A DNA stretch of 64,000 nucleotides from Tagaea sp. (GTDB taxonomy: Bacteria; Pseudomonadota; Alphaproteobacteria; CACIAM-22H2), in NCBI GenBank assembly GCA_965279525.1, contig CBDIIB010000005.1, positions 363,998-427,997 on the forward strand. Direction: 5' to 3'. The position numbers and the translations under genes were made by a program. This document shows positions 4,318-12,296 of the stretch, one piece after another; position 1 is the first letter of the stretch, and the number at the start of each line of letters is the position of its first letter. A model generated the notes under the pieces. The model made no database searches, was not told where the DNA came from, and saw only the letters and a list, made by a program, of their open reading frames with translations.

Positions 4318-4458
4318 ATGCGTCGCCCGCTTGCGCTGGCTCTGATCGGCCTTCTGGTCATTCTCGCCGGCTTCGTGGCCTTCCTCGCCACCTGGGAAAT
4401 CCCCGCGCCGACCGCGCGCATCGAAAAGACCATCCCCAATGACCGCCTTCCCCGCTAG
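4318..4458 (+). CDS. Small (46 aa) single-TM membrane protein, hypothetical
   Basis: ATG at 4318 after the AT-rich spacer: MRRPLALALIGLLVILAGFVAFLATWEIPAPTARIEKTIPNDRLPR. Below ORF-track size cutoff. Overlaps the next gene start by 20 nt. Confidence 0.35.
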   Translation: MRRPLALALIGLLVILAGFVAFLATWEIPAPTARIEKTIPNDRLPR

Positions 4459-6217
4459 GCCCCGCCCCCTCGTGCTTGCCCTGCTGGCCGGCCTCGCCGC
4501 CGGCCCGGCCTTCGGCCAGGGCACGCCGATGCCCCTGCTGGTGCCGCCGGGCCGCGAAGCGCCGCGACCGGCCGCTCCGCCGGAGCCGGCCGCAGGCCCG
4601 GCCCTGCGCGGTCCCGCCGGCATCGAGATCGAGAACGCGCGGCCGATGGACACCGAAGGCGTGGGCCTCATCGATGCGGCCAATGGCGGTCTTGCCGCCG
4701 AAGCCTGGGCGACCAGCAACCGCGCCCTGGCCGAGCGGCTGGTCCGCGACCTGCCGGCCCCCATCGCCTCGACGCCGGCGCGGGCACTCGCGACGCGCGC
4801 CCTCGTCTCGGCAAGCGGTGCGCCGGCCGGCGACAGCAAGACGAATTTCGCCGCCCTTCGCGCCCTCAAGCTGCGCCAGATCGGCGACATCGCTGCGGCG
4901 GCGGATCTCGCCGGGCGCATCCCGCAGCGCACCGGCGACGAGAACCTGCTGCGCATCCTGATCGACGAAGCCTGGCTTGCCGGGGCCGACGAGCGCGCCT
5001 GCGGCCATGTGCGCGAAGCGCTCGCCGTCTCGCGCCACGCGGATTTCCAGAAGGCGCTGATGTTCTGCCAGGCGCTTGCCGGCGATTCCAACCGCGCCCA
5101 GCTCGGCCTTGCCATGCTGCGCGACCAGGGCGTGCCGGAAGACGCCGCCTTCGTCACGCTGCTGCTTGCCGCCGGCGGCGACGGCAAGGGCATCAAGGTC
5201 GATACCTTGCGCAACGCAAGCCCGCTGTCGCTGGCGATGCTGCGTTCGGCGAAGGTCGCGCCGCCGGCCGATACGGCCCAGTCGGCCGATCCTGCGGTGC
5301 TCGCGAGCCTTGCCAAAGGCAGCCTCGGCACGCCGGAGTTCCGCCTTGCGGCCGGCGAGCGCGCCGAAGCCTTCGGCGTGCTTGCCGCCGAGGCACTGGG
5401 CGAACTCTACGCGGCCATCGAACTCACGCCGGCCCAGATGAACGATGCCGCCGCCTTCGCGCGCCAGGACGGCGGGCCGAAGGGGCGGGCCGCCCTCTAT
5501 AAGGCCGCGAAGGCGGCGACGGATCCGGCCCAGCGCCTGGCCGCCCTCCAGCGCCTGTGGCGTCATGGCCGCGAACGCGGCGGCTATGCCACGCTCGCGC
5601 GCGTCAGCCTTGGCCTGCTCGCCGATGTCCCGGCATCGCCCGAGCATGCGGCCGCCGCCGGCGACGTCGCGCGTGCCCTGCTGATGGCGGGGCGCGAGGA
5701 CGACGCACTTGGCTGGATGCGCTTCGCGCGCGCCGCCCAGATCGGCGGCAACGCCGATGCCGAGACGCAGGTCGCCGGCTTCTGGCTGCTGGCCACGCTG
5801 GGCGGATTGCAGTGGGACGGCCCGCGCGATCCCGCCCGCCTCGACGCGTGGCGCCAGGCACAGGAACGCATCGACGCGCGCGCGGCACCCGCACGCGCCG
5901 CACTCGGCATCACGCTGCTGAGCGGCCTTGGCCACCTGCCGCCGGGTGGTGCCGTGATCGCGCTTGTGCAAGGCCCGTTCGAACGGCTGAGCGTGCCGAT
6001 GCCAAGCCCCGTGCTGTGGACCGGCCTGCACGAAGCCGCGATCGGCGGGCGCACCGCCGAGACCGCGTTGCTGGCGGTCCATCTGCTGGGGGCCGAAGGT
6101 GCCGCAGGCGCCAGTCCCTATGCGCTGCTCGCCGTCCTCGACGGGCTGCGCGCCGTCGGCTTCGAGGAGACCGCACGCCGGCTCGCCCTCGAAGCGGCGA
6201 TCGCGTCGGGGCTCTAG
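4439..6217 (+). CDS. Secreted Ala-rich hypothetical protein (592 aa) with N-terminal signal peptide
   Basis: Signal peptide MTAFPARPRPLVLALLAGLAAGPAFGQG. Long coherent ORF. Antisense ORFs 4225-6319 judged artefacts. Confidence 0.6.
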   Translation: MTAFPARPRPLVLALLAGLAAGPAFGQGTPMPLLVPPGREAPRPAAPPEPAAGPALRGPAGIEIENARPMDTEGVGLIDAANGGLAAEAWATSNRALAERLVRDLPAPIASTPARALATRALVSASGAPAGDSKTNFAALRALKLRQIGDIAAAADLAGRIPQRTGDENLLRILIDEAWLAGADERACGHVREALAVSRHADFQKALMFCQALAGDSNRAQLGLAMLRDQGVPEDAAFVTLLLAAGGDGKGIKVDTLRNASPLSLAMLRSAKVAPPADTAQSADPAVLASLAKGSLGTPEFRLAAGERAEAFGVLAAEALGELYAAIELTPAQMNDAAAFARQDGGPKGRAALYKAAKAATDPAQRLAALQRLWRHGRERGGYATLARVSLGLLADVPASPEHAAAAGDVARALLMAGREDDALGWMRFARAAQIGGNADAETQVAGFWLLATLGGLQWDGPRDPARLDAWRQAQERIDARAAPARAALGITLLSGLGHLPPGGAVIALVQGPFERLSVPMPSPVLWTGLHEAAIGGRTAETALLAVHLLGAEGAAGASPYALLAVLDGLRAVGFEETARRLALEAAIASGL

Positions 6218-6221
6218 GCGC

Positions 6222-7163
6222 ATGGCGCGCGGCCGGCCGGCAGGTGCGAAAGCCGGCCTGTCGGCGCCCGCGGAAAACTTCATCGAGATGCTGCGCGCGA
6301 CACGCAACGCATCGGCCAATACCGAGCGCGCCTATCGCGGCGACATCGCGGATTACGAAAGCTTCCTCGGGAAACGCGGGGCAAGCGCGCTCGACGTCGA
6401 TGCCGCTGCGGCGCGTGCCTACCTGAAGCAGATCGCACAGGCGGGACTTGCGCCGCGCAGTGCGGCCCGCCGGCTTTCGGCCTTGCGCCAGATGCACCGC
6501 TTCCTCGTCTCCGAAGGGCTGCGCGCCGACGATCCGCTCGCCACGCTGGACGCACCGCGCGTGGGCCGGGCGCTCCCGAAGATCCTGTCGGAGGACGAGG
6601 TGCGCGCCCTCCTCGATGCCGCGAAGGCGCTTGACGGGATCGACGGCACGCGCCTCGTGTGCATCCTCGAGATCCTCTATTCGAGCGGGCTGCGCGTCTC
6701 CGAACTCGCGGGGCTGAAGCTTGCTTCGCTGTCGCGCGACGGGCGCTTCCTGATCGTGCGCGGCAAGGGCGACAAGGAACGCCTGATCCCGCTCGCTGCC
6801 CCGGCCCTTGCCGCCCTCGAAGCGTGGCGGGCCGCCCGCACGCGCGAGTTCCCGCTCGCCGCCAAGTCACGCTTCCTGTTCCCCACGCGCGCCGTCTCCG
6901 GCCACCTGACGCCGGCGCGCATCGCGCAGCTGCTGAAGGCGCTGGCCCCGAAGGCCGGGATCGATCCGCGCCGGCTGTCGCCCCACGTGCTGCGCCATGC
7001 CTTCGCGAGCCATCTCGTCGACCGCGGGGCGGACCTGCGCGCCGTCCAGCAGATGCTGGGCCACGCCGACATCGCGACCACGCAGATCTACACGCATGTC
7101 GGCGGCGAGCGCCTGAAACGCCTTGTCGCCACGCACCATCCGCTTGCCCGTCGGCGCCACTAG
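6222..7163 (+). CDS. xerD: Site-specific tyrosine recombinase XerD
   Basis: Phage-integrase catalytic motifs (RHAFASHL...LGHADIATTQIYTHV), ~313 aa. Start moved to MARGRP at 6222 just after the upstream stop. Confidence 0.75.
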   Translation: MARGRPAGAKAGLSAPAENFIEMLRATRNASANTERAYRGDIADYESFLGKRGASALDVDAAAARAYLKQIAQAGLAPRSAARRLSALRQMHRFLVSEGLRADDPLATLDAPRVGRALPKILSEDEVRALLDAAKALDGIDGTRLVCILEILYSSGLRVSELAGLKLASLSRDGRFLIVRGKGDKERLIPLAAPALAALEAWRAARTREFPLAAKSRFLFPTRAVSGHLTPARIAQLLKALAPKAGIDPRRLSPHVLRHAFASHLVDRGADLRAVQQMLGHADIATTQIYTHVGGERLKRLVATHHPLARRRH

Positions 7164-7204
7164 AGGCTACGTTCCAGACCTGCTCTTTTTGAGGAAATCC
7201 GCTC

Positions 7205-9223
7205 ATGGCCGCGAAGAAGAAGCCCGTCAAGAAAGCCCCCGCCAAGAAGGCCGTCAAGAAGCCTGACCCCAAGAAAGCAGCGGCCAAGAAGCCGGTCGCC
7301 AAGAAGGTGCTGCCCAAAAAGGTCGTCGCCAAAAAGCCGGCGCCCAAGCCGGTCGCGAAGAAGGTCGCCGCCAAGCCGGCCCCCAAGCTGGCGGCCAAGA
7401 AGCCCGCCCCCAAGATCGTCGCGAAGCCGGCGGCAAAGCCGGTCGCCAAAACCGTCGCCGCGAAGCCGATGCCTGTCGCCAAGCCCGTCGCCAAGCCGGT
7501 CGTGGCCGCCAAGCCCGTGCCGGTGGCAAAGCCGGTCGTGGCCAAGCCGGTGGCCCCGCCGCCGCCGCCCAAGCCCGTCGTCAAGCCGCCCGTGAAGGGG
7601 CCCGGCGGCACGGTGCTGCCCGACGACGGCGTCAAGCTCGACGCGAAGATCACGCCCGACCAGCTGACGATCCTCACGCCCGAAGCGCTCGCCTTCGTCG
7701 TCGAGCTCGAGCGCAAGTTCGGTGCCCGCCGCCATGAACTGCTCGCCGCGCGCGTCGAGCGCCAGAAGCGCCTCGATGCCGGCGAGCGGCCCGACTTCCT
7801 GCCGCAGACGCGCTCGGTGCGCGAGGCGGAATGGACCGTGGCCCCGCTGCCCAAGGACATCCTCGACCGCCGCGTCGAGATCACCGGGCCCGTCGACCGC
7901 AAGATGGTCATCAACGCGCTCAACTCCGGCGCCAACGTGTTCATGGCCGATTTCGAGGATGCCTCGACGCCGACCTGGGCCAACCTGATCGAGGGCCACG
8001 TCAACCTGCGCGACGCCAACGCCGGCACGATCGCGTTCACCGATCCCAAGACCGCCAAGGCCTACAAGCTCAACCCCAAGCATGCCGTGCTGTTCGTGCG
8101 CCCGCGCGGCTGGGCGCTGCCCGAGAAGCACCTCACCGTCGACGGCAAGCCGATGTCGGGTTCGCTGTTCGATTTCGGCATGTACTTCTTCCATAACGCC
8201 AAGCAGCTGCTGAAGAAGGGCTCGGGCCCGTATTTCTACCTGCCGAAGATGGAAAGCCATCTCGAAGCGCGCCTGTGGAACGACGTGTTCGTCCACGCGC
8301 AGGAGAAGCTCGGCGTCAAGCGCGGCTCGATCAAGGCAACAGTGTTGATCGAGACGATCCTCGCCGCGTTCGAGATGGACGAGATCCTCAACGAGCTGCG
8401 CGAGCACTCGGCCGGCCTCAATTGCGGGCGCTGGGACTACATCTTCAGTTTCATCAAGAAGTTCGCCGAGCAGCCCAACTACCTGATGCCCGACCGCGGC
8501 CAGGTGACGATGACCTCGCACTTCATGCGCTCGTACAGCCAGCTGCTGATCAAGACGTGCCACCGGCGCAACGTGCACGCGATGGGCGGCATGGCCGCCC
8601 AGATCCCGATCAAGGACGATCCGGCCGCCAACGAGGCCGCGATGGCCAAGGTGCGCGCCGACAAGGACCGCGAGGCGACCGACGGCCACGACGGCACGTG
8701 GGTGGCGCATCCGGGTCTCGTTCCCATCGCCAAGGCGGTGTTCGACGAGAAGATGAAGGACGCCAACCAGATCGCGCGCAAGCGCCAGGACGTGCATGTC
8801 GTGGCGGCCGACCTCATCCAGGTGCCGGCCGGCACGATGACGGAAGCGGGCCTGCGGCAGAACTGCGCGGTGGGCATCGGCTATCTGGAAGCGTGGCTGC
8901 GCGGCCTTGGCTGCGTGCCGCTCTACAACCTGATGGAAGACGCCGCGACCGCCGAGATCAGCCGCGCGCAGGTCTGGCAGCAGCTGCGCCACTCGGCCAC
9001 GCTCGAGGACGGGCGCGCGGTCGACAAGGCGATGATGCGCAAGATCGTCGAGGAGGAACTCGACAAGATCCGCAAGTCGGTCGGCGCCGAACGCTACGGC
9101 AAAGGGCGCTTCAAGGAAGCGGCGAAGATGTTCATCGAGCTGTGCGAGGCCGACCGCTTCCCCGACTTCCTGACGATCCCGGCCTATGACTGGATCATCG
9201 CGAACGAGTCGAAGATCGGGTGA
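7205..9223 (+). CDS. aceB: Malate synthase A with ~130-aa N-terminal Lys/Ala/Pro-rich (histone H1/AlgP-like) repeat extension
   Basis: Residues ~135-672 align to malate synthase A ([63 protein letters not shown]). Residues 1-130 are AKKP/KPVA repeats with no internal Met. Confidence 0.85.
7211..7600 (+). repeat. In-frame tandem degenerate repeats (gccaagaagccg / aagccggtcgcc units) encoding (A/V)KKP and KPVA repeats
   Basis: Visible nucleotide- and protein-level periodicity at the 5' end of aceB. Confidence 0.7.
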
Positions 9224-9232
9224 GGTCCCGGG

Positions 9233-9265
9233 AAACAGGTTACCACCGGTTACGGTAACCTGTTT
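9233..9265. terminator. Perfect 12-bp inverted repeat AAACAGGTTACC-N9-GGTAACCTGTTT 10 nt after the aceB stop. Terminator-like hairpin with no U-tract, or protein-binding palindrome.
   Basis: Read directly: aaacaggttaccaccggttacggtaacctgttt. Confidence 0.45.
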
Positions 9266-9360
9266 ATCCCGCTGGAATCGCTTGCAGGTAACTTCCGTGC
9301 GCGCGGCAACGTATGACTCCGACGTTCAGCATCGCGTGTGCATGCCATTAATTTCGCGGA

Positions 9361-9395
9361 CGGATCGATGCGACACGCGACGTCGCATCGATCCG
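9361..9395. promoter_or_regulatory. 14-bp perfect inverted repeat CGGATCGATGCGAC-N7-GTCGCATCGATCCG
   Basis: Read directly in the low-GC intergenic islet. Could be an operator or strong hairpin. Confidence 0.5.
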
Positions 9396-9442
9396 TCACG
9401 CAAATCTTGCAGTCATATTCGATTGTCAAAGAGCACGTCCCG

Positions 9443-9468
9443 AGGGTGTGAATATATTTACACACCCT
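9443..9468. promoter_or_regulatory. Inverted repeat AGGGTGTG-aatatattta-CACACCCT with AT-rich centre
   Basis: Read directly. 8-bp arms with a 10-nt AT loop, 200 nt upstream of the 9662 gene. Confidence 0.4.
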
Positions 9469-9470
9469 GC

Positions 9471-9500
9471 AATTGTCAAGATAAATAGCCTATAATATTT
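9471..9500 (+). promoter_or_regulatory. Putative sigma70-like promoter (ttgtca ... TATAAT at 9491-9496) for the 9662 gene
   Basis: Consensus -10 hexamer TATAAT. Upstream TTGTCA has suboptimal 12-nt spacing, so the -35 assignment is uncertain. Confidence 0.3.
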
Positions 9501-9503
9501 CCG

Positions 9504-9518
9504 CCGGGACAAGCCCGG
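9504..9518. repeat. Hairpin CCGGG-acaag-CCCGG, copy 1 of a 15-bp motif repeated at 10526-10540
   Basis: Identical 15-mer ccgggacaagcccgg occurs on both sides of the 9662-10450 gene. Confidence 0.5.
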
Positions 9519-9661
9519 TAAAAGTCCAGCCGGGCAATGCCCAATGCCGCGACTTCCGGAACCATCCCTATGGAAGGATGCCGGATACGGCACGCGCGGA
9601 ATTCGACTTGAATTATCCTTAGAGTGTATATAATTCAGCCGGGTAATCTGAGGTGTGTTAA

Positions 9662-10450
9662 ATGCTGAAGACTGTTTGCGTCATCGGTTCGATGCTGATT
9701 TCCGTGCTGGTACCGCAGTGCCTGGCACAGTCGATCCACGAGCAACCAAATGGCACCCGGATCCTCGGAAGCTTCCAACTCGGCTCGGTAACGGTTCCCC
9801 TGCCGCCGGGAGAGTGGGTCCTGAACGGGCGAGGCGTATTCACTGTGAACGCGTCGACCGGTCCTCTTAAGGTCGGCGAAGCCTATCTGTCCGAGTCGAA
9901 AGACGGCAAGGTGACCCGCATCATCTACGCGCGCGCGAATCTGGGCGGGGAATCGACCGGAGGCGGATGGACTCGCGACAGGAACGTCTGCGACCGGGTC
10001 AACGTGATCCACGCCGAGTTCGACCGGCACTTCAATCCCAAGGAAGCCAAGTGCTGGATGGTGACCCATTTCTTCGATGGAACGCCGAACAATCCGTCCG
10101 ACGCCTTCAGGGAATTCTACGCGTCACTCGCACAAAGCAAGCTCGATACGCCGAAGCTGCGCCTCAGTGCGGTCTATTTCCTGACGGACGCGACGAACTT
10201 CGTCTACGTGAACTACGCGTTCAATCCAGAGATCGTCGGCGTTCCGCTGGGAAGTCTCGAGCGCTGGGATTCGAGCGAATGGAATATCTTGCGAATCAAC
10301 CTGTTCCCCGACCGCGTGAAATTCGCCGGAACGATCAAGTCGTTCGGTGAAGCGATGCTTCCCTTCGTCGAAAAAGGCCTGCAAGGCCGCATCAAGGCCG
10401 GCGAGTACGTTCCCGTCACGATCGAAGGCTGGCCGACCGGCGCGCAGTGA
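9662..10450 (+). CDS. Secreted hypothetical protein (262 aa) of unknown function, with signal peptide and atypical lower GC
   Basis: MLKTVCVIGSMLISVLVPQCLAQS signal, SD-like GAGG upstream. Codon usage is A/T-richer than neighbours. No family recognised. Confidence 0.65.
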   Translation: MLKTVCVIGSMLISVLVPQCLAQSIHEQPNGTRILGSFQLGSVTVPLPPGEWVLNGRGVFTVNASTGPLKVGEAYLSESKDGKVTRIIYARANLGGESTGGGWTRDRNVCDRVNVIHAEFDRHFNPKEAKCWMVTHFFDGTPNNPSDAFREFYASLAQSKLDTPKLRLSAVYFLTDATNFVYVNYAFNPEIVGVPLGSLERWDSSEWNILRINLFPDRVKFAGTIKSFGEAMLPFVEKGLQGRIKAGEYVPVTIEGWPTGAQ

Positions 10451-10519
10451 CCGAGGCAGCCTGCCGCCGGCGGCAGACCAATTCCCGTGATCGGCAGGGT
10501 ACTTCATGCAACCGAACTC

Positions 10520-10558
10520 GTGGATGCCCGGGACAAGCCCGGGCATCCACGGCTTTTG
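10520..10558 (+). terminator. Rho-independent terminator: 13-bp stem GTGGATGCCCGGG-acaag-CCCGGGCATCCAC followed by GGCTTTTGTGATTT
   Basis: Perfect stem-loop plus T-rich tail 70 nt after the stop of the 9662 gene. Contains copy 2 of the ccgggacaagcccgg motif. Confidence 0.7.
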
Positions 10559-10564
10559 TGATTT

Positions 10565-11351: not shown

Positions 11352-12296
11352 ATGACCGACCCCATCCCCAGCCGCCTCAACCGCACCGAACTGGCCGTTC
11401 CGGCCAGCCGGCCCGAGCTGTTCGCCAAGGCGGCCCGCTCGGCCGCCGACGTCGTGTTCCTCGATCTCGAGGACGCGGTCGCCCCGGGCGACAAGGCCAA
11501 GGCGCGCAAGAACGCGGTCGAGGGGCTCAACGACATCGACTGGGAGGCGGTCGGCAAGACCGTTTCCGTGCGCGTCAACGGCTTCGACAGCGAATGGCTC
11601 TACCGCGATCTCGTCGATCTGGTGGAGAAGGCCGGCGACCGTCTGCACATGATCATGCTGCCCAAGGTCACGCGGCCCGAGGAGGTCATCGCGGTCGATC
11701 TGTGGATCTCGCAGATCGAGCGCGCGAAGAAACTCACGCGGCGCATCGGGCTCGAACTGCTGGTCGAGTCCGCGCAGGGCATCGCCAATGCCGAGGCGAT
11801 CGCTTCGGCAAGCAGCCGGACCGAATCGCTCGTGTTCGGCGTGGGCGATTTCGCCGCATCCACCGGCATGCGCACGACCAATATCGGCGGCCTGTCGCGC
11901 CAGTACATGGTCGAGGGGCGCATGGCCGACATCTGGCACTACGCGCTCGCCCGCCTTGTCGTGGCCGCGCGTGCCGCCGGCAAGCGGCCGATCGACGGAC
12001 CTTATGCCGATTTCAACGATTCGATCGGCATGAAGGAATCGGCCCTGCGTGCGGCGGCCCTGGGCTGCGAGGGCAAGATGGTGATCCACCCCTCGCAGAT
12101 CGACGAAGTCAACGAGGTCTTCACGCCCGACCCGATGGAGATCGAGCGCGCGCGCGCGATTCTGCTGGCCATGGAAGAGGCCGCCGCGAAGGGCCAGGGT
12201 GCGGCCGCCTTCGAGGGCCGGCTCATCGACATCGCCTCGATCCGCCAGGCCGAGGCGCTGGTCGCCAAGGCGGCCCGGATCCGCTCGGGCATGTAG
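11352..12296 (+). CDS. HpcH/HpaI-CitE family CoA-ester lyase (citrate lyase beta / malyl-CoA lyase-thioesterase-like)
   Basis: 314 aa, ELAVPASRPELFAKAARSAADVVFLDLEDAV and EGKMVIHPSQI motifs of CitE-like lyases. Confidence 0.75.
   Translation: MTDPIPSRLNRTELAVPASRPELFAKAARSAADVVFLDLEDAVAPGDKAKARKNAVEGLNDIDWEAVGKTVSVRVNGFDSEWLYRDLVDLVEKAGDRLHMIMLPKVTRPEEVIAVDLWISQIERAKKLTRRIGLELLVESAQGIANAEAIASASSRTESLVFGVGDFAASTGMRTTNIGGLSRQYMVEGRMADIWHYALARLVVAARAAGKRPIDGPYADFNDSIGMKESALRAAALGCEGKMVIHPSQIDEVNEVFTPDPMEIERARAILLAMEEAAAKGQGAAAFEGRLIDIASIRQAEALVAKAARIRSGM

Follow-up and report, generated by a model that had tools for sequence, protein, structure and literature searches.

The malate synthase gene aceB in a stretch of 64,000 nucleotides (nt) from Tagaea sp. 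(assembly GCA_965279525.1, contig CBDIIB010000005.1; the whole stretch analysed is hereafter called the window, and positions are counted from its first letter) encodes a complete malate synthase A that is preceded, in the same reading frame, by a long extension rich in lysine, proline, alanine and valine. Comparison of orthologous loci indicates that this extension is very probably translated, and its composition argues for selection on its positive charge. We lean towards interpreting it as a translated, disordered and inherited polycationic tail acting as a tether to cellular polyanions, a reading that we hold with slightly more belief than doubt. Nucleoid proteins, DNA enzymes and organisers of granules are the known bacterial bearers of polycationic tails resembling histone H1, and the aceB tail is a tail of this H1-like kind, here located at the N-terminus of an enzyme of the glyoxylate cycle. 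Searches of the open-access literature brought up no account of a malate synthase with a basic tail. The sequences themselves are already present in databases as "malate synthase", some of them flagged with PF07382; the feature appears to have passed unremarked and is often annotated away.

Anatomy of the aceB gene

The gene is a single uninterrupted open reading frame (ORF) of 672 amino acids (7205–9223, forward strand), in which the K/A/P/V tail runs into malate synthase A without any stop codon, as a preliminary description of the same DNA had already stated. An in-frame TGA at 7190–7192 closes the frame upstream and makes ATG 7205 the earliest start possible, and a xerD-like gene ends at 7163, only 41 nt ahead of this ATG. 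The features of the gene are as follows.

7191..7195, forward strand: Shine–Dalgarno (SD)-like GAGGA, 9 nt before the ATG, read directly from the sequence
7205..7207, forward strand: ATG initiation codon of the tailed 672-aa enzyme; orthologues retain it along with the rest of the first ten codons
7205..7384, forward strand: proximal tail, residues 1–60, with AKKP/KKPV-type units, 23 Lys and 12 KK pairs
7385..7555, forward strand: distal tail, residues 61–117, with single-Lys repeats of the KPVA/AKPV tetrapeptide type and more Pro and Val; it contains the non-conserved ATG 7469
7556..7570, forward strand: PPPPP run, residues 118–122, kept in close orthologues just ahead of the junction
7595..7612, forward strand: KGPGGT junction motif, residues 131–136, conserved at the protein level with varying synonymous sites (Gly codon GGG/GGC/GGT) and predicted to be ordered
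7613..7615, forward strand: in-frame GTG (Val137), an alternative start that would yield the canonical 536-aa enzyme; GTG, ATG or ATC in orthologues
7613..9220, forward strand: complete catalytic body of malate synthase A (MS_N, TIM barrel and MS_C), judged by Pfam, solved structures and the AlphaFold2 (AF2) model
9221..9223, forward strand: stop codon, end of the aceB ORF

Judged by profile and structure matches, residues from about 137 to 672 are a bona fide full-length malate synthase A. The Pfam domains MS_N, MS_TIM-barrel and MS_C are recognised with 68.8, 388.1 and 140 bits, against gathering cut-offs of 23.5, 26.4 and 23.1, over residues 147–663. The enzymes of Bacillus anthracis (3CUX), Escherichia coli (AceB, 3CUZ) and Reyranella massiliensis (P0073, 74% identical) all match the body, residues 9–526 of 3CUX aligning to residues 145–662 (E = 7e-228) and residues 20–529 of 3CUZ to residues 153–662 (E = 9e-178), and the matches among solved structures are exclusively chains of isoform A (MSA), with none of isoform G. 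The body shares 60–96% identity with annotated enzymes, with about 200 invariant columns in our alignment A1, and its product presumably catalyses the formation of malate from glyoxylate and acetyl-CoA. Canonical enzymes begin (MTALDLPAGV...) where the tail joins the body in the aceB studied here; the preliminary description had placed the beginning of the alignment with E. coli AceB at about residue 135, which agrees well with a canonical N-terminus at about residue 134 in the comparison with 3CUZ.

Composition and predicted structure of the tail

The Lys–Ala–Pro N-terminus, previously estimated at about 130 residues, indeed measures 133–136. Its residues 1–136 include 39 Lys (29%), 32 Pro (24%), 31 Ala (23%) and 23 Val (17%), with one acidic residue and a net charge of +38. 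The underlying DNA consists of imperfect repeats, which recur every 12, 15, 27, 39 and 48 nt, encoding five KPVA, six AKPV, four AAKP, one KPAA and one PAKKA motif and 12 KK doublets besides many other units, and the modal spacing of the lysines is four residues (18 of 38 intervals).

We modelled the protein with AF2 using a 38-sequence alignment. The enzyme body is well modelled (predicted local distance difference test score, pLDDT, mostly above 80; predicted template-modelling score 0.76), and residues 1–114 have pLDDT values of 30–39 and are assigned by DSSP to coil, with no secondary structure. Confidence is intermediate for residues 121–130 and exceeds 90 from residue 131 onwards, the KGPGGT junction included (pLDDT 94 for residues 131–140). 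The tail is thus predicted to be an intrinsically disordered polycationic appendage with a Pro-rich stretch adjoining the fold.

Comparative evidence that the tail is translated

The preliminary description had concluded that the extension is translated if the enzyme is made from this ORF, arguing that internal starts are lacking between the repeat region and the catalytic domain and that the next in-frame Met downstream of 7205 lies deep inside the enzyme. Neither statement is correct: ATG 7469 (Met89) falls within the tail, and eight in-frame GTGs occur in the tail region (7307, 7502, 7517, 7523, 7538, 7550, 7592 and 7613), the last of which coincides exactly with the canonical N-terminus. 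Nor does the open frame alone say much about coding, because the DNA has a guanine–cytosine (GC) content of about 70% and two antisense frames over the same 408 nt are open as well. The case for translation was, therefore, built on comparative data, and these strongly support the earlier conclusion, although the reasoning first offered for it fails.

An in-frame tail beginning at the conserved start is present in all eight orthologous loci read as DNA (L001, L003, L019, L020, L021, L022, L032 and L033), and four of these (L019, L020, L032 and L033) keep it although the deposited gene begins at the canonical N-terminus. Loci with catalytic domains 83–96% identical to the window's also share the SD-like sequence and an ATG that opens ten conserved codons, MAAKKKP(A/V)KK, with synonymous variation within those ten; an AGGA or AAGGA element stands at an equal distance from the ATG in L003, L019, L001 and L020. 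A survey of tail presence and length in orthologues, which the preliminary description had proposed as a check, found tails of 28–200 residues in 51 of 116 cluster representatives (the nearest ones bearing the anchor motif), with 38 distinct lengths, all of them in frame with the enzyme.

The manner in which the tail changes points in the same direction. Differences between the tails of the window and L003 fall mostly on third codon positions (39, against 14 and 16 at the other two). Single-base differences in Lys codons, counted in pairwise codon alignments, comprise 75 synonymous and five nonsynonymous changes and not a single change from Lys to Glu. These counts are indicative, since the pairs overlap and are not independent and the aligned sequences are repetitive. 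In the tail, the GC content at the first, second and third codon positions is 0.68, 0.49 and 0.93; the catalytic part gives 0.64, 0.40 and 0.93. Taken together, these data make us confident, on comparative grounds, that aceB is translated from ATG 7205.

Selection on charge in a rapidly changing sequence

The 51 tailed representatives provide 5032 tail residues, only nine of which are Asp or Glu (0.18%), as against 13% acidic residues in the catalytic domains; three are aromatic or Cys, Lys and Arg together make up 29% (Lys 24%), Ala 31% and Pro 19%. The change from AAG to GAG is a transition favoured in a genome with 70% GC. That Glu is nearly absent and AAG persists despite this bias argues that the positive charge is maintained by purifying selection and that the low-complexity sequence does not simply drift neutrally. 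Residue frequencies thus argue for selection keeping both the charge and the composition of the tail, with many Lys, almost no Asp or Glu and no aromatics.

Within these bounds the tail changes quickly. In the closest pair, the window and L003, 21% of tail codons differ nonsynonymously, compared with 3.5% in the enzyme. The preliminary description had expected length polymorphism through slippage of the repeats, and differences by whole units are what we find: near-identical proteins in one 90% cluster carry four, five or six AAKPV units and measure 627, 632 or 637 residues, and the proteins of the window's own cluster measure 663, 667 or 672.

This rapid divergence, a length range from 28 to 200 residues and the existence of one clade without tails would all suit a tail that is translated and yet functionally neutral, having arisen by capture of an upstream start codon and repeat slippage and being tolerated at an exposed N-terminus. 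We nevertheless regard this explanation as unlikely. Drift in a genome of 70% GC should erode the AAG Lys codons and bring in Glu and Asp, whereas Lys still accounts for 24% and acidic residues for 0.18% of the tails across lineages whose catalytic domains are down to about 65% identical; besides, the N-terminal motif is conserved and several deep branches have kept the tail.

Internal starts and the annotation of relatives

A second alternative accepts ATG 7205 and adds an internal start at or near 7613, so that long and short isoforms would form tethered and free pools of the enzyme. The codon of residue 137 is indeed GTG or ATG in the window, L003, L019 and L020, with AAGGG 12 nt upstream of it. 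The same codon is, however, ATC (Ile) in L001 (where the preceding Val is encoded by GTC) and in the group of P0004/5/6, and Val, Met and Ile form an ordinary series of hydrophobic substitutions. The SD-like element is spaced far from the codon and its sequence follows from conserved K–G codons, and a promoter/terminator scan, admittedly a weak test, found no promoter-like site within the tail. Two isoforms are, in our opinion, distinctly unlikely. We also considered the KGPGGT junction as a conserved internal ribosome-binding site (AAGGGG) and rejected it, given that the third position of the Gly codon varies and the putative start codon is ATC in L001.

The canonical position of GTG 7613 might also suggest that the enzyme begins there (536 aa) and that the 408 nt upstream are an untranslated leader left open by chance. 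NCBI records of orthologues begin at or near this position (P0009 and P0021, 536 aa; P0020, 542 aa; and also P0134), with P0009, P0021 and P0134 using that very start, and long chance ORFs are common in such GC-rich DNA, as the two open antisense frames illustrate. Such a leader would, however, have to keep its frame through 38 tail lengths, conserve an upstream ATG, its SD element and ten codons, show an in-frame third-position GC of 0.93 and the 75:5 excess of synonymous changes in Lys codons, exclude acidic residues almost wholly, and fit a gap of only 41 nt between xerD and aceB counted to ATG 7205; moreover, the AAGGGG before 7613 varies at a synonymous position (GGG/GGC/GGT) and the putative start codon is replaced by ATC in L001. 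We find this explanation scarcely credible. Practically untenable is a fusion artefact, in which faulty sequencing or assembly, or the loss of a stop codon in this one genome, would have joined a separate histone-like gene to aceB: nothing speaks for it save the unusual architecture, which recurs in dozens of independent assemblies (JGI, ENA, NCBI and Logan), and none of the loci inspected has a stand-alone gene there.

The tail is systematically mis-annotated in public records and is partly invisible in protein databases. Public aceB calls place the start at or near the canonical N-terminus (536–544 aa) in four loci (L019 6001, L020 6001, L032 3001 and L033 2454–3001), so that the tail, in frame with the enzyme, passes for 400–590 nt of "intergenic" DNA; the annotation of L033 even places a 169-aa antisense ORF across it. 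Given such canonical-start records and spurious antisense calls, tails of this kind may be more frequent on other enzymes than the records suggest.

Relationship to known polycationic tails

The likeness to histone H1 and AlgP asserted in the preliminary description holds for the composition and the four-residue Lys spacing; it does not extend to membership in the Pfam family HC2 (PF07382), whose profile gives 23.0 bits with the full protein and 28.8 bits with the tail alone, under the gathering cut-off of 40. The weak match (residues 2–118, E = 1.6e-6, tail alone) reflects a K/A/P likeness to chlamydial Hc2 and the C-terminal domain of eukaryotic histone H1, and several orthologues bear a precomputed PF07382 label. 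The similarity is compositional, as the aceB tail contains no S/TPKK motifs and no globular H1 domain.

A closer parallel may be drawn with the "histone H1-like" C-terminal domains of AlgP and PhaF from Pseudomonas, which are likewise rich in Lys, Ala and Pro, predicted to be disordered and periodic at the tetrapeptide level. AlgP itself carries KPVA variants, and the net charges of AlgP (+55) and PhaF (+35) are of the same order as that of the aceB tail (PMC9239181). Repeat number differs between relatives in tails of the AlgP/PhaF type (PMC12818456), as it does in aceB. The KPAA/KPVA tail of AlgP is required for the spacing of polyphosphate granules and its peptides bind DNA (PMC9239181), and the KPAA tail of PhaF binds RNA directly (PMC12818456). 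On the other hand, these tails are C-terminal and follow a phasin or helical domain, whereas the aceB tail is N-terminal on a metabolic enzyme; it is also far more degenerate (one perfect KPAA versus 22–25), KK doublets abound in its first half and Val is frequent, and no homology is detectable by phmmer or with HC2. The tail may well act as the H1/HC2 and AlgP/PhaF domains do, but its sub-cut-off score, the wrong terminus and the degenerate repeats keep it, as far as its sequence tells, out of both classes.

The tails of the actinobacterial proteins TopA, Ku, HupB/MDP1 and HBHA offer another comparison, being low-complexity polycationic additions to a conserved core in a lineage of high GC content. 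As in aceB, these lysine-repeat or PAKKA tails are lineage-specific and of variable length (PMC5714199, PMC3553676, PMC10665949, PMC10810275). The lysine repeats of Streptomyces TopA stabilise TopA–DNA complexes (PMC5714199), the PAKKA repeats of mycobacterial Ku modulate DNA binding (PMC3553676), and those of HBHA act on DNA (PMC10665949). The aceB tail differs in having a single PAKKA in 136 residues and in occurring in another phylum and at the other terminus. The hosts of the actinobacterial tails act on DNA, so that a DNA-binding tail has an obvious role there, while to our knowledge malate synthase has no nucleic-acid substrate.

Distribution and origin

In a neighbour-joining tree of catalytic domains, tails occur in several deep branches, with starts of the types MAAKKK, MAARKK, MAQRKK and MAKSKT; the more distant tails mix in Arg, while those of the window's own clade have almost none. 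A derived clade of the Reyranella/Enhydrobacter type is uniformly without tails. Tailed genes share the order aroB–aroK / small ORF–590-aa ORF–xerD–aceB–(HpcH-type lyase)–accA–meaB–rpmB, while Reyranella aceB has an upstream spacer of 87 nt and a different gene neighbourhood. Because the tail is found in several deep branches and the synteny is conserved, it is probably an old, inherited feature of malate synthases in a broad Rhodospirillales-like group of alphaproteobacteria, drifting by in-frame slippage of units of four or five residues.

The named relatives with a tailed gene are metagenome-assembled genomes (MAGs) of Tagaea, Telmatospirillum and unclassified Rhodospirillales or Alphaproteobacteria; the nearest named loci among the matches listed, at least three of which are close, come from two MAGs, one of a Tagaea sp. 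and one of the Rhodospirillales, each with 96% identity. When the best 150 malate synthases were clustered at 50% identity, the sole basic-tailed representative was the alphaproteobacterial P0149, into which this clustering folds essentially the whole tailed group, and the other N-terminal extensions were not basic. Basic tails thus appear, among the sequences compared, to be confined to this alphaproteobacterial group. A phmmer search with the tail alone against 5.8 billion proteins returned nothing, all 8000 candidates having been rejected, presumably by the composition correction of HMMER.

A DNA pattern for MAAKKKPAKKAP matched seven metagenomic loci, six of them aceB. The sole other match is an unrelated 193-aa protein (L025, 919–953, reverse strand), which starts with the same MAAKKKPAKKAPSK motif and lacks a long tail. 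The idea of a promiscuous KAP-tail module in this neighbourhood was dropped after a scan of the window and of related loci totalling 269 kb had yielded no further KAP-tailed ORF.

Possible function of the tail

A role of the tail in holding malate synthase on nucleic acid or polyphosphate is, in our estimate, about as likely as not, the suggestion being based on analogy with the tails discussed above. In such a scheme the tail would serve as a non-specific electrostatic tether to cellular polyanions, be it nucleoid DNA, RNA and ribosomes or polyphosphate granules, with the KK-rich N-terminal half as the binding end and the Pro-rich KPVA/PPPPP half as an extended spacer to the folded domain. 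Catalysis would proceed as without the tail, and the outcome would be an enzyme that is localised or concentrated. The nucleoid or granule tethering and the moonlighting role envisaged in the preliminary description are plausible by the same analogy.

Several points weigh against the interpretation as a selected tether, in addition to the non-independence of the Lys-codon counts. The tail belongs to no recognisable curated family, HC2 remaining sub-threshold; tail-less enzymes such as that of Reyranella evidently function without it; most close orthologues have a GTG or ATG precisely where canonical enzymes begin, which would permit a short isoform; and we saw no other K/A/P-tailed ORF in the 64-kb window or the 269 kb of related loci, and no sign of a shared targeting system.

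Besides a translated tail of little function, considered above, the main alternative is a regulatory role of the tail, for instance through lysine acetylation or control of protein turnover. A more specific version, to our minds a long shot, is a charge-switchable tether, in which about 39 lysines would hold the enzyme on the nucleoid, RNA or polyphosphate granules and their acetylation from acetyl-CoA or acetyl-phosphate would free or relocate it. This version rests on selection for Lys specifically, as suggested by the near-absence of Arg in the window's clade, though distant lineages do mix in Arg. Acetylation control is documented for the lysine-rich tail of HupS (PMC11229371). If the charge switch were real, the capacity of the glyoxylate shunt would be controlled in the manner of histone tails, via the enzyme's own substrate pool. 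In a related reading, the tail may nucleate a condensate concentrating enzymes of the glyoxylate cycle during starvation, when polyphosphate and poly-3-hydroxybutyrate (PHB) are mobilised.

Returning to the polyanion tether, a tail kept under selection on an enzyme of central carbon metabolism across an alphaproteobacterial group would mean that the location of the enzyme, or its association with polyanions, matters to the cell. The tail-less sister lineages represent natural controls, which makes the system testable.

Neighbouring genes

Immediately after the aceB stop codon, the GC content drops to 0.50–0.60 (9224–10560), compared with 0.66–0.73 in the flanks, and this stretch contains a 262-aa ORF (9662–10450, forward strand) with no Pfam match. 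The same spot, between aceB and the HpcH-type lyase or accA, is occupied by Mrr and RES–Xre genes in L021 and by HigB–HTH in L032, and by nothing in L020 and L033. The stretch 3' of aceB looks like an insertion hot spot.

Upstream of xerD, a 592-aa ORF (4439–6217, forward strand) has no Pfam match, and a Pfam-less gene of 572–610 aa occupies the same position in L019, L021, L022, L032 and L033, preceded in L019, L021 and L022 by an ORF of 46–49 aa; this ORF of about 590 aa is a conserved protein with no Pfam family. Between aceB and accA, at 11352–12296 (forward strand) and also in the orthologous loci, lies a gene for an HpcH/HpaI-type C–C bond lyase with a citrate-lyase-beta-like or malyl-CoA-lyase-like fold, which may connect aceB with a route involving malyl-CoA or related to glyoxylate.

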